Shown here: positions 49,421 through 53,400 of the stretch, in pieces
Layout of the letters: each line of letters begins with the position of its first letter
Numbering within the stretch: the first letter of the stretch is position 1
IMG/VR virus record: IMGVR_UViG_3300032271_000996
Location: 1 to 58,117 of that record
Direction: 5' to 3' (one strand)
Length of the DNA stretch: 58,117 bases
From: a virus
Taxonomy: Duplodnaviria > Caudoviricetes
Position numbers and translations under genes: made by a program
Notes under the pieces: model-generated
Databases searched by the model: none
What the model was told of the DNA's origin: nothing
The model's input: only the letters and a program-made list of their open reading frames with translations

Positions 49421-52400
49421 TCAACCAATTTTGGGAGCAACTAGTGCTACTTCAGTTGTGTTGATTTTAGCAAGGTCTAGAGGGAAATTCGTGAACTCCA
49501 TAAGTTTACTATCCTTATGGCACAGACTATATCATCAACCTTTGTTATTAGGTTGTCGGGCGCTTAATCCTGTCATTAAGAAGACTGAACTTCTCAGGTA
49601 GTCGTTGAACCTTTCTTAGATGTATCTAAGACTTGGCTGCTGATTGCCCTATTTTTAGAGGGTTTCCAGCAATTCACCCGATTTACACTTATTGATTACT
49701 CAATAAGGCCACCATTTCTAATGGGCATTTCTCTCATGCATTGTCTCCATTCCTAGTCCCGCTCTTGTCAATATGTCCGCCCAAGTAGGAATTACTCGGT
49801 TTTGACTATCAACAATGGACTGGTTGAAATTGAATCCGTTCAGGTTAAATGCCATAGTGCTAACACCAAGGGCAGTAAACCAGATACCTACAACAGGCCA
49901 TGCGGCGAGGAAGAAGTGTAATGAACGGGAGTTATTAAAGGACGCATATTGGAAAATAAGACGACCGAAGTAACCGTGAGCCAATTGTCCAAAAGTTTCC
50001 TTAAGGGTTGGACTATATCTTCACCTATTAAAGGTGCTGGGCGCTCTTGCCTGTTATTAAGGGAACTGCATCCCTCAGGTAGTCTCTGAACCTTTCCTAG
50101 ATGTATCTAGGACTTGGATGCTGATTGCCTTATCCATAAAGGACTTAGGTTTCCAGCAGTTCACCCAGTTTAACGTGACCCGCTCTGTCAAGCCACGATG
50201 TTGTAAGTCTCTTCTTCTTGACCGAACTTATACCCATAATTCTGGGAATCATTTTCGGTTGTTTCACGAACCAACGATGAGGTTACGAGGGAACCCCTAT
50301 TATACCTTATTTTCATAAGGAATGGACTATATCATCAACCTATTTTATTAGGTTGTCGGGCACTTAAACCTGTTATTAAGGGAACTATATCCCTCAGGTA
50401 GTCTCTGAACCTTTCTCAGATGTATCTGAGTCTTGGATGCTGATTGCCGTATCCATAAAGGACTTAGGGTTCCAGCAGTTCACCCGATTTTCACTTACTG
50501 ATTACTCAGCAAGGGCACAGTTCCCTATGCATCGCTGAGAAAAGACTTCCTCCAAAAACACCTGCAACGCCCGCCATATGGAACGGATGCATTAGGATGT
50601 TATGTTCTGCCTGGAATACCAACCATTAGGCAGAACGGGAACCTATGTTTCCATAGGGATTGGACTATATCATCAACCTTTTACTTTCTCCCATCTGATT
50701 TTTGCCGCTTTAGTTTGTTGTTCTTTGCGAGTTTCAGAAAGAACTAATCTTCTTTCTTGTATAACTTTAAGACATTCATTTATTCTTTGAGTTCTTCTAC
50801 TACCCATATGAGGTAATATTTGTAAGAGAACTTTTTCTACTTCATCTCTTTTAGTGAGACTTATAGCATAAATGGTTTTTCTTTCAGTTGTTTTCGCTTT
50901 TTCATTTATTGGAACATTATTAAGAAGTTTTGCTGCCTTTTCAACAACATCCTTATCAGTCATAGAAAGTCTAATAACTATTTGAGTTGGATGATGATGT
51001 CTAGGTTTAGTTATCTGAAAATAACCTTCTCCTTCCAATAAACCTGCTAGCCAAGCTGCGTCAATATCAGTCATTTGTTTATCCTCAACTTATATTATTA
51101 TTTATACATCTACCTATTTCTAGGTGGTGTCGTTGGATAAACATTATATCATAAAAGGTTGTCGGGCGCTAGTGTCGTATTACATTCCACGCTTGGAATA
51201 CCGACTAGTCTCTGAACCTTACACAGAAGTATCGTCTGTGTCTTGGATGCTGATTGCCGTATCCATAAAGGACTTAGGTTTCCAGCAGTTCACCCGATTT
51301 ATACTACACATTGGTTTAGTTTATGTAGTTGAAGGTTCCACTAATCCCAAGAGGCATAGAATCACTAAAAGAACCTTGACCGAAGGGGTAGATTAGGAAT
51401 ACGGCAGTGGCAGCAGCAACAGGTGCGCTGTAAGCAACCATAATCCAGGGACGCATACCTAAACGATAAGAAAGTTCCCATTCACGACCCATATAGCAGT
51501 AAATGCCAATCAGGAAGTGAAATACGATGAGTTGAAATGGACCACCATTATAGCAGTGGGGTTCCATATGTTTCCATATGGACTGGACTATATCTTCACC
51601 TTATTTCTATTTAAGGTGTCGGGCGCTAATCTGGTATTACGAACCACGCTTGGTTCCCCCAGTAGTCTCTGAACCTTCCACAGAAGTATCGTCTGTGGCT
51701 TGGCTGCTGATTGGCGTATTTTCTAAAATCCAACTACAAGAAATACCACTTGTTAAAAGTCTATTTCCATTAGCAACTTTATTGAGATGGGACTGATAAA
51801 CTTTTATCCCGTATTTTTCCAAAATTATAGAGCAAACAACATTAAGTGTTTTATCTTCTTCTGGATTAAAAATTACATCTCCAAGATGATTACCAATAGT
51901 TCTTTCAGTCATCTTTTTATAAATGTGAAAAACTTTTTTATATTGTCTATTGGTTATAGTTTCTTTAGTTGCATTTCTTGGATTTTTATAGGCATAATTG
52001 ATAAGATTTTTACCAATTTTTTGCCTTACACTTTTAGGTTGTTTGAGCGCAGCAGAACGAAGTTGTCCGCTTTCTTTTGCAACCTTACCACCTTTTTTAC
52101 CTGCAAGAGAAATAACTTGATGAATTATTTCTTCTTTTTGAGAATAACCTGCAAGTGCTTTCCAGGCAATCTTATCTTCTTCGTTTCCCCAAAGACGCCA
52201 GTTGCAATAATGAAACATTGCGTGTTGTGTTGGAGAAATTTCAACAAGATTTTGTGGTTCATCAGAACCGCCTAGATATTTTGGAATAAGATGATGTTTA
52301 TGTCTCATAGAAAACTTAGCTTTCCAGCAATTCACCCGATTTAAAGTGGCCCAATATTATTTATAAAGCCACTCATCAAGACTTGCCGCTTCCCAGATGG

Positions 52401-53400
52401 GGTAGAAATGCAGTCCGATAGCATTAGAACTTGGAATAACTGCACCACTGATGATGTTATTACCATACATAAGAGACCCAGCAACTGGTTCTCTAATCCC
52501 GTCTCTTATCCCAATAAAACAGTCATATCTTGTGACTTAGACCGTTTCAATTGACCAATTTGATTTGCTCGTTTTGCATTTTCAACTCTTCCCCCGTTTT
52601 CTACCCAATCTTTCCACTCATTAATATGAGAAATACATTCTTTAATTCTTTCACTTCTTCTTTTACCCATATATGGGAGTATTTTTTCTAAAATGAAAAG
52701 AACTTTTTCTCTATTGCCTATATGGAGAGCGTAAACTGTTTTCCCCGTGAGGGTTTTCCTATTGGGTATAAAATAGGGTTTATCTACAAAATTACCTAAT
52801 TTAGCAACCACATCTTCGTCAGTCATAACAAGACGAATATATGGTGCCGGTGGAGCTTTAGATGTTTCATAGCGACCCTTGGAGCGATTATCTATTCCAA
52901 AGTATCCTTCACCTTCTAAAATTCCAGCAATCCAAGTAATTTGAGATTCAGTTAAATCAAGCATTTTGGTTTCACATCTGCTGTTATATTTATACAGCAA
53001 GCGCAAATAAAAGTCAACTGTGAGATTTGGACCATATCTTCACCCTTTATACAAAGGGGCTGGGCGCTCTAGTCGGTTATTAAGCAGTCTCAACTGCTCC
53101 GATGGCCTCTGAACCTTCCTCAAGTGTACTTGAGGCTTGGCTGCTGATTGCCTTTCGGTTTCCAGCAATTCACCCAGTTTTTACATCACCCTTACGGATG
53201 AAGGACACAGACTAAAGCAGTATGTCTACAGGAGGTGCGCCAATAAACGCAATAATGAAGCAAGTAGTAGCTGTGAGTAATGTTGGAATCATAAGAACAC
53301 CAAACCATCCCACATATAAACGATTGTTCGTAGAAGTAACCCAGGAGCAAAATTGTTCCCAGAGATTACTCTCTGAACGTGTAGCAATTGTAGCAGTCAT
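49421..53400 (-). CDS. psbA: Photosystem II D1 protein, 7 exons: 53400-53222, 52504-52367, 51553-51323, 50623-50527, 50295-50191, 49981-49721, 49489-49421
   Basis: Exons sum to 1080 nt = 359 aa plus stop, in frame; Y161, D170, E189, H190, H198, H215, H272, H332, E333, H337, D342, A344 present; E130. Confidence 0.97.
49490..49720 (-). ncRNA. Group I intron 6 of psbA (after nt 1011, His337), 231 nt, no ORF
   Basis: Exon ends in U, intron ends in G; P AATTGCTGGAAA, Q AATCAGCAG, R GTTCAACGACTA, S GATATAGTCT. Confidence 0.93.
49982..50190 (-). ncRNA. Group I intron 5 of psbA (after nt 750), 209 nt, no ORF
   Basis: P1 CGUGGCU/GGUCACG; P/Q/R/S elements; terminal G. Confidence 0.93.
50296..50526 (-). 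ncRNA. Group I intron 4 of psbA (after nt 645, His215), 231 nt, no ORF
   Basis: IGS GUGC pairs with GCAU; AGGGAAC pairs with 3' exon GUUCCCU (P10); P/Q/R/S elements. Confidence 0.93.
50624..51322 (-). ncRNA. Group I intron 3 of psbA (after nt 548), 699 nt, with LAGLIDADG ORF
   Basis: P1 ACUACAU/GUGUAGU; P/Q/R upstream and S downstream of the ORF. Confidence 0.93.
50673..51074 (-). CDS. Intron-encoded single-motif LAGLIDADG homing endonuclease
   Basis: [12 protein letters not shown]; GAGG RBS; TATAAATA at 51099-51106. Confidence 0.85.
   Translation of the reverse strand: MTDIDAAWLAGLLEGEGYFQITKPRHHHPTQIVIRLSMTDKDVVEKAAKLLNNVPINEKAKTTERKTIYAISLTKRDEVEKVLLQILPHMGSRRTQRINECLKVIQERRLVLSETRKEQQTKAAKIRWEKVKG
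51554..52366 (-). ncRNA. Group I intron 2 of psbA (after nt 317), 813 nt, with HNH ORF
   Basis: P1 GAGUGGCU/GGCCACUU; P before ORF, Q/R/S at or after ORF end; terminal G at 51554. Confidence 0.93.
51637..52308 (-). CDS. Intron-encoded HNH homing endonuclease
   Basis: [31 protein letters not shown]; start set at MRHKH; TATAAATA at 52358-52365. Confidence 0.85.
   Translation of the reverse strand: MRHKHHLIPKYLGGSDEPQNLVEISPTQHAMFHYCNWRLWGNEEDKIAWKALAGYSQKEEIIHQVISLAGKKGGKVAKESGQLRSAALKQPKSVRQKIGKNLINYAYKNPRNATKETITNRQYKKVFHIYKKMTERTIGNHLGDVIFNPEEDKTLNVVCSIILEKYGIKVYQSHLNKVANGNRLLTSGISCSWILENTPISSQATDDTSVEGSETTGGTKRGS
52505..53221 (-). ncRNA. Group I intron 1 of psbA (after nt 179), 717 nt, with LAGLIDADG ORF
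   Basis: IGS GUCU-GUGUC pairs with both exons; P7 covariation GAGGCCA/UGGUCC versus GAGACUA/UAGUCC in most of the others. Confidence 0.93.
52506..52964 (-). CDS. Intron-encoded single-motif LAGLIDADG homing endonuclease
   Basis: [12 protein letters not shown]; start set at MLDLTE; TATAAATA at 52987-52994; stop codon abuts the terminal G of the intron. Confidence 0.85.

Follow-up and report, generated by a model that had tools for sequence, protein, structure and literature searches.

Six group I introns in a cyanophage psbA gene and their probable exchange of structural modules

A single group I intron in psbA, together with the free-standing endonuclease F-CphI, makes up the 'collaborative homing' system of the cyanophages S-PM2 and S-RSM88, according to the available part of its description (PMC6083498). 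The 58,117 nucleotides (nt) of IMG/VR virus record IMGVR_UViG_3300032271_000996, referred to here as the window, contain a psbA (D1) gene with six group I introns, I1 to I6. These are likely to be members of an IA-type family, predicted to be self-splicing, that populates cyanomyovirus psbA, includes the S-PM2 intron, and has exchanged modules by recombination. The S-PM2 intron resembles those of the window in its host gene, its five core anchors, and its P6a-P7.1/2 interior, which is of the A type. Its P7.1/2 stem-loop is that of I4, to which it is 79.9% identical over 173 nt. However, it is the only intron of its gene and is located after nt 1002 of the coding sequence (CDS), where the window has none of its six; the I6 site is 9 nt downstream. 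Introns at nt 1002 are present in S-PM2 and 7 other loci.

Good matches to I4 were found, among 50,697 phage records, in S-SRM01 and S-PM2/S-RSM88 only. The site of I5 is occupied in S-SRM01 by its orthologue (97.1% identity over 209 nt), although this phage has three introns and shares just the one site with the window. Its psbA (L001 positions 2986-5400), for which the annotation gives two partial genes and a homing endonuclease, is a single gene interrupted by three group I introns, located after CDS nt 276, 750, and 1002. Two of these have an Rfam match and the first, which is B-type, has an endonuclease open reading frame (ORF) in P5. In the available part of its published description, the psbA of S-SRM01 consists of two partial ORFs and a probable intron with an endonuclease, with no mention there of an intron family or of mosaicism, and S-CBWM1 likewise has a probable endonuclease-bearing psbA intron (PMC8557907). 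S-SRM01 is an example of an intron-rich psbA wrongly annotated as partial genes.

Staphylococcus phage Twort has three similar group I introns in one gene, with exon skipping, which is the highest number in the published cases found and is exceeded by the six in the window (PMC3073962, available passage). The host gene is different and that passage describes neither domain-wise mosaicism nor per-site population variants, although multiple similar introns in one phage gene are common to both. Neither multi-intron cyanophage psbA nor domain-wise mosaicism of phage introns is described in the literature searched; an earlier mention in subscription papers or supplements is possible. The td, nrdB, and sunY introns of T4 have homologous IA2-type cores within one T4-like genome, some with endonuclease ORFs in peripheral loops, and are in three different genes rather than one.

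That group I introns undergo gene conversion and horizontal transfer is already an established idea. Both processes are described, in the parts of the papers available, as shaping mitochondrial introns (PMC4059233), and ribosomal DNA introns as reverse splicing to new sites (PMC1299323). The concepts of homing, gene conversion, and moves by guide pairing are shared with the window. The settings, however, are eukaryotic organelles and nuclei, whereas the window has an auxiliary metabolic gene of a lytic phage with cassette-like hairpin exchange. The findings are relevant to research on mobile introns and on the auxiliary genes of cyanophages.

Block-wise similarity among the six introns

The window is a 58-kb viral contig without end repeats and has an estimated completeness of 27%. 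Introns were called with the Rfam covariance model RF00028, for which all six score above the gathering score of 50 bits (53.0 to 104.7 bits). Their exact boundaries were obtained using tblastn with the D1 of the intronless cyanophage S-RIM4 and by reading the junctions. Splicing in silico generates a CDS of 1080 nt and a stop-free D1 of 359 amino acids (aa), with exons 75-98% identical to S-RIM4 D1. The outer limits of the introns are 49490-53221, and in all six cases the last nucleotide is T in the 5' exon and G in the intron. The gene, its introns, and the blocks compared below are as follows.

49421..53400, minus strand: psbA (D1) gene, seven exons and six introns (tblastn with S-RIM4 D1; splicing in silico)
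53400-53222, 52504-52367, 51553-51323, 50623-50527, 50295-50191, 49981-49721, 49489-49421, minus strand: psbA exons (tblastn and junction reading)
52505..53221, minus strand: I1, 717 nt, after CDS nt 179 (Rfam, 70.8 bits)
51554..52366, minus strand: I2, 813 nt, after CDS nt 317 (Rfam, 59.1 bits, 3' part)
50624..51322, minus strand: I3, 699 nt, after CDS nt 548 (Rfam, 53.0 bits)
50296..50526, minus strand: I4, 231 nt, ORF-less, after CDS nt 645, in the His215 codon (Rfam, 87.3 bits)
49982..50190, minus strand: I5, 209 nt, ORF-less, after CDS nt 750 (Rfam, 91.5 bits)
49490..49720, minus strand: I6, 231 nt, ORF-less, after CDS nt 1011, in the His337 codon (Rfam, 104.7 bits)
51300-51240, minus strand: I3 P3-P6 block, like I4 and I5 (block alignment)
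50490-50430, minus strand: I4 P3-P6 block, like I3 and I5 (block alignment)
50166-50113, minus strand: I5 P5 block, like I3 and I4 (block alignment)
51698-51629, minus strand: I2 P6a-R-P7.1/2, B-type (block alignment)
51241-51172, minus strand: I3 P6a-R-P7.1/2, B-type, like I2 (block alignment)
50431-50366, minus strand: I4 P6a-R-P7.1/2, A-type (block alignment)
50112-50047, minus strand: I5 P6a-R-P7.1/2, A-type (block alignment)
49631-49566, minus strand: I6 P6a-R-P7.1/2, A-type (block alignment)

The Rfam model aligns well to just the 3' part of I2, because an ORF sits in its P5; this intron has no P2. In the minimum free energy fold of I4, P2, P3, P4, P5, P6a, a nested P7.1/2 domain, P8, and P9 are all recovered as helices (z = -4.15). 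A hairpin domain of 33-34 nt is present between P7 and P3' in all six introns. Extra helices P7.1/P7.2 at this location and a G-U-A linker are the criterion for the IA2 subgroup in the available part of PMC3428280; the B-type introns have GTA, the A-type introns TTA instead.

An earlier note on this DNA had described the introns as mosaic near-copies of one ribozyme lineage, alike in different ways in different structural domains. The limits it gave for the six introns agree with the outer ones above, and the similarities it listed are all present in direct alignments, including the match of 59 of 60 nt between I3 (51241-51300) and I4 (50431-50490), and the per-domain identities confirm that the pattern shifts with the domain. 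With no more than one mismatch, the longest ungapped runs are 61 nt (I3-I4), 54 nt (I3-I5), 37 nt (I4-I5), and 35 nt (I2-I3), the remaining 11 of the 15 pairs having runs of 17-25 nt. Across J3/4-P4-P5-P4'-P6, I3 is identical to both I4 and I5 at 50 of 51 positions, and I4 to I5 at 49. The same three match I6 at 37-38 of these positions and I1 at 31-33. The grouping is different for P6a-R-P7.1/2, where I2 goes with I3 (56/70) and I4 with I5 (56/66), each of the latter two matching I6 at 51/66; here I3 shares just 33-37 of 70 positions with I4, I5, and I6. P3, taken over both strands (CTGGG/CCCAG in I1 and I5), is identical between I1 and I5 (18/18), and either matches the other four introns at 12-13 positions. 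I4 and I6 are similar in P8-S (28/31) and in the 5' region with P2 (27/37). I6 has I4-like P2 and P8 with a P5 and P9 of its own, and I1 has its own P5 (with a GAAA loop), P6a, P7.1/2, and P8, along with a compensated P7 (GGCCA/TGGTC). These groupings are mutually incompatible and occur in contiguous blocks.

The description of the introns as near-copies was overstated, being appropriate for certain blocks of I3, I4, I5, and I6. Identity over P4'-S among the six introns is 69-84%. For generic phage introns from outside psbA, the best identity to the six in this region is 70% at the median, 77% at the 95th percentile, and 81.5% at most. In closeness to the rest of the six, I1 and I2 do not exceed such generic introns.

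Module combinations in the wider psbA intron family

Relatives were fetched from IMG/VR using a P5-hairpin motif (65 stretches) and a P6a-hairpin motif (46 stretches). A scan with a generic core motif returned at least 116 stretches, so that motif is common in phage introns. psbA is present in 72 of the 217 loci collected, and a junction finder resolved 116 of 125 inter-exon gaps as introns. These 116 well-defined psbA introns occupy at least 16 sites in 65 loci, the window included. The five core anchors of the family can be parsed in 97 of them, from IMG/VR and isolate phages, which form the set used for trees and types. A second retrieval, made against bias from the interior hairpins, used only the 23-nt 5' end of I3. 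The window has the highest number of introns per locus, with six. The IMG/VR contig L149 has introns at sites 179, 317, 548, 645, and 750, and ends before site 1011; its variants differ: at site 548 the interior is A-type and P5 has a 97-nt insert, and at site 645 P5 contains an ORF.

The ends of the introns are site-specific. These consist of the P1 guide, in some cases with P2, on the 5' side, and P9 with its tail on the 3' side, and P3 also follows the site. The interior hairpins, P5, the contiguous P6a-P7-P7.1/2 (A and B), and P8, are of a few discrete types that recur across sites and vary within a site. Across the psbA set, P3, the 5' end, and the tail with P9 go with the insertion site, while P5, the deep types A and B of P6a-P7.1/2, and P8 do not. 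On the predicted structure, the swapped parts are self-contained helices, and exchange of entire helices would leave the ribozyme foldable. Double changes preserve pairing in the P7.2 stem across 24 unique A-type modules.

All four combinations of P5 type with P6a-P7.1/2 type occur, and identical P5 blocks are found with both A-type and B-type interiors. The maximum likelihood tree of P6a-R-P7.1/2 has two clades, with support of 100/100, and introns from site 548 are on both sides (11 and 4). Site labels require 26 changes on this tree where 11 would be sufficient. In approximately unbiased (AU) tests of the P6a-P7-P7.1/2 block, a single clade for site 548 is rejected (p-AU 3.8e-48), although single clades for site 317 (p 0.31) and site 645 (p 0.12) are not. 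For the J3/4-P5-P6 block, it is a B-type clade that is rejected (p-AU 8.4e-8). Per-domain trees had been suggested in the earlier note as a check on recombination or gene conversion between the introns, and their incongruence in both directions supports that proposal.

Site 548 is the clearest case. Searching with the 23-nt 5' end of I3 retrieved 24 loci in addition to the window, and among the 20 that parse, the interior behind this one 5' end is B-type in 12 and A-type in 8, with five architectures in all. P5 at this site can be a hairpin, an insert of 66-107 nt, or a 676-nt ORF, and P8 either a hairpin or an ORF of 482-486 nt. Flanks of 23 nt and 38 nt are identical here while the interiors are approximately 50% identical, and the switches of type coincide with the conserved P4'/P6 and P3' segments. 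The invariant core segments at switches are CAATCAGCAKCCAAG (P4'/P6), AAGGTTCAGAGACTA (P6'/J6/7/P7), GCGCCCGAC (P3'), and GATGATATAGTCC (J8/7/P7'). Convergence cannot produce identical flanks around differing interiors at one site, and recombination between non-allelic introns is the reasonable reading. Of the explanations considered, only recombination or gene conversion between introns accounts for the wider data.

That the shared hairpins are ancestral, or convergent under structural selection, on a single tree and with no recombination is very improbable. The core segments are indeed conserved in all phage IA-type introns and short hairpins are of few kinds, as this would have it, and the borderline homoplasy result on the six introns given below is also in its favour. 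Against it are the strongly supported but conflicting trees of two blocks, the identical flanks around dissimilar interiors at site 548, and the existence of all four module combinations. Convergence on 17-34 specific hairpin nucleotides is also implausible.

Tests confined to the six introns are less clear, and decisive support for recombination comes from the related loci. Runs tests on ungapped core sites, for four triplets, gave counts of 595, 1046, 323, and 626 in 50000 permutations, and the remaining two of the six, which each had I6 as the child, fell short of significance. Exchange as an explanation is weakened by the fact that these tests are uncorrected, on triplets picked post hoc, and of moderate significance. 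A test of the pairwise homoplasy index type is borderline on the six introns (p 0.02-0.05), with low power and with poorly aligning ends included. Most loci were retrieved with hairpin motifs derived from the window, which biases the frequencies; many rows come from related phages, nearly duplicate one another, and are not independent; and the groups put to the AU tests were chosen after the table of modules had been inspected. I1 has no close orthologue in IMG/VR. The exchange itself is read from the sequences, with the mechanism inferred.

A-like and B-like P6a-P7.1/2 modules are also present in phage introns outside psbA, in the IMG/VR loci L021, L024, L080, and L087, so the two types are old and predate the psbA family. 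By eye, the introns of L024 and L087 are apparently in structural protein genes. A part of the pattern may therefore have another source, two old sub-lineages having invaded psbA separately and exchanged modules afterwards, which is a further point to be set against the reading preferred here.

For exchange within the psbA family, the candidate processes are homologous recombination, or template switching in break repair, between non-allelic introns. The invariant cores, of 10-21 nt, could serve as the short homologies. A likely setting would be co-infection, with endonuclease-driven homing and the recombination-dependent replication of T4-like phages, and the family may have reached further psbA sites by reverse splicing or by endonuclease-mediated ectopic repair. 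Such a family would be a dense natural data set on a ribozyme evolving by whole-helix exchange with its core kept, in which a small change of guide reaches a new site. With many variants per site, the compatibility of peripheral domains becomes directly testable.

Local duplication, population-wide elements and assembly

The earlier note had also proposed local spread of the introns to new sites within this genome, and the same-site introns of other phages leave this unsupported for five of the six. I5 has orthologues in 17 loci (94.7-99.5% identical), including the isolate S-SRM01, I4 in 8 loci (88-97.8%), I6 in 2 loci (95.7-97.4%), I2 in 18 loci (87-90%), and I3, counting those of the same length, in 6 loci (86-98%). 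The module make-up of the orthologues of I2 to I6 is the same as in the window. In the orthologue loci the flanking 180 nt of exon are 65-89% identical, below the intron identity of 86-99.5%. This higher conservation of introns than exons fits horizontal spread by homing, or strong constraint. We consider it probable that most introns of the window are mobile elements of the wider phage population, which this genome inherited or gained by homing, and not local duplicates.

Multiplication of one intron inside this genome into new psbA sites, with partial homogenisation of the copies by gene conversion, is by comparison unlikely. It could account for the near-identity of I3, I4, and I5 over 54-61 nt within 1.3 kb of one gene, and for the site-548 and site-645 introns of contig L127, which have identical P7.1/2 and P8. 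I1, without an orthologue elsewhere, could also be of this kind; its 19-nt 5' end is in no other IMG/VR contig, and other site-179 introns have a 5' end and modules unlike its own. The orthologues of I2 to I6 speak against it, as does the P5 block shared by I3, I4, and I5, which prevails throughout the sample at sites 548, 645, and 750. Furthermore, in none of three blocks does identity within genomes exceed that between genomes, the observed value being attained in 2037, 1518, and 1608 of 5000 permutations. Recent homogenisation within genomes was dropped as a candidate, same-genome pairs being no more alike.

Since the window is a metagenomic contig, assemblers might have created the mosaics as chimeric joins where intron cores are repeated. 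The region is tiled without differences by Logan contigs of the probable source run, and these end or overlap at the blocks shared by I5, I4, and I3 (50137-50160, 50439-50459, and 51240-51289). The breaks are exactly at shared repeats, so the joins depend on the assembler. However, the exon order is correct and every 5' half holds the guide for its own exon. The I3-type mosaic is present in 7 other contigs with differing IMG dataset numbers, I5 and the B-type site-276 intron are in the isolate genome of S-SRM01, and a site-548 variant with an I4-like interior is in RNA contigs of two studies. Taken together, these make a chimeric origin highly unlikely. Repeated intron cores do fragment short-read assemblies of viral psbA, and intron-rich psbA would bias surveys of the gene by polymerase chain reaction or read mapping.

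In RNA runs, 5-7% of sampled words are present. Joints in RNA contigs equal the removal of I5 (49981>50191; runs X15 and X16) and of I3 (50623>51323; run X17), and these may derive from the intronless psbA of hosts or other phages, which counts against their use in favour of the splicing family proposed here. Other joints in RNA contigs carry extra letters. RNA-library contigs of runs X15 and X17, from two studies and corresponding to window positions 50323-51352, contain a site-548 intron with an I4-like 3' part. As in the L144-type variant, its P5 has other sequence, of 664 letters.

Guides, endonuclease genes and neighbouring features

In every intron, P1 places a U.G pair at the splice site. 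The guides listed here form 5, 8, 7, 4, 7, and 4 base pairs (bp) with the exon in I1 to I6, respectively.

53208-53204, minus strand: I1 guide, GTGTC (P1 pairing)
52351-52344, minus strand: I2 guide, GGCCACTT (P1 pairing)
51309-51303, minus strand: I3 guide, GTGTAGT (P1 pairing)
50518-50515, minus strand: I4 guide, GTGC, with P1 loop GGAA (P1 pairing)
50180-50174, minus strand: I5 guide, GGTCACG (P1 pairing)
49712-49709, minus strand: I6 guide, GTGG, with P1 loop GAAA (P1 pairing)

When the six guides are matched to the six sites, the own site is the best in all six rows, as expected from the earlier claim that every internal guide sequence fits its own site. In the corresponding P10 comparison, the own site scores highest in three of six rows (I3, I4, and I6), is tied in I5, and below the maximum in I1 and I2; the P10 of I4 has 8 bp. 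I4 and I6 share the same P1 architecture, a short helix with a GNRA loop, and differ chiefly at the guide positions. New psbA sites might be reachable by such minor guide changes alone.

Two of the window sites, those of I2 and I5, are targeted at GTGGCT and the other four end in CAT. Across the 16 psbA sites (L001-L217 and the window), 7 end in CAT, 3 in GCT, and 2 in CGT, where the CDS background is 25 CAT in 345 T positions, a comparison made post hoc. Several of the CAT sites are His codons by alignment position (H92, H190, H215, and H337). This bias is compatible with short guide pairing in reverse splicing or with endonucleases that target conserved His codons. It is possible, if doubtful as yet, that the psbA of freshwater-type cyanomyoviruses is a natural workshop for ribozyme retargeting. 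At least 16 sites of one 1-kb gene would have been colonised, with a preference for those ending in CAU, including several codons for critical His, by guide ends joined to hairpin cassettes and endonuclease genes. An arms race would be the driver, each intron riding on a cognate homing endonuclease and immunising psbA against it. If true, phage ribozymes would regularly evolve through intron-to-intron homing, by template switching between non-allelic introns in break repair.

Endonuclease ORFs are present in three of the six introns, I1, I2, and I3, and another ORF is located downstream of psbA.

52506..52964, minus strand: I1 ORF, 152 aa, LAGLIDADG-like (motif by eye; phrog_5046 at 3e-14)
51637..52308, minus strand: I2 ORF, 223 aa, homing endonuclease with an HNH-like motif (by eye; phrog_655 'homing endonuclease' at 2e-10)
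50673..51074, minus strand: I3 ORF, 133 aa, LAGLIDADG endonuclease, in P8 (Pfam LAGLIDADG_3 8.2e-9, LAGLIDADG_1 9.8e-5)
48571-49332, minus strand: downstream ORF, 253 aa, starting about 90 nt past the psbA stop (phrog_15526 1e-33; phrog_314 'homing endonuclease' 1.5e-8)

The ORFs of I1 and I2 and the one downstream of psbA had no Pfam match at a threshold of 0.01, and PHROGs matched all three. The I1 ORF is 3' of P9 and 39% identical to the I3 ORF (BLASTP); its TAA stop (52506-52508) ends 1 nt ahead of the 3' splice site. Relatives of the I2 ORF found by tblastn carry an HNH homing endonuclease annotation. From its insertion in P5, the I2 ORF continues across P4', P6, P6a, and P7 into P7.1/2 (overlap 51637-51700), and the TGA stop of the I3 ORF falls within the J8/7 core (50673-50680). 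Endonucleases from different psbA sites are merely 23-39% identical as proteins. The presence or absence of their genes varies at sites 179, 317, 548, and 645, and the host loops differ. The endonuclease genes have probably been gained and lost independently.

The 253-aa downstream ORF has a GIY-YIG-like N-terminus, by eye, and is placed like F-CphI beside the psbA of S-PM2. By analogy, its product may act in trans for one of the introns that lack an ORF.

On the other side of the gene, a PhotoRC-II RNA motif is located just 5' of the psbA start codon (53438-53524, minus strand; 52.9 bits against a gathering score of 39). The same motif precedes the psbA of S-SRM01 (L001 positions 2849-2946). 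Further along, at 54773-55174 and 55748-56158 on the minus strand, are two ORFs of 133 and 136 aa that are made up of tandem units of about 31 aa containing NTPPETLIILAKD.

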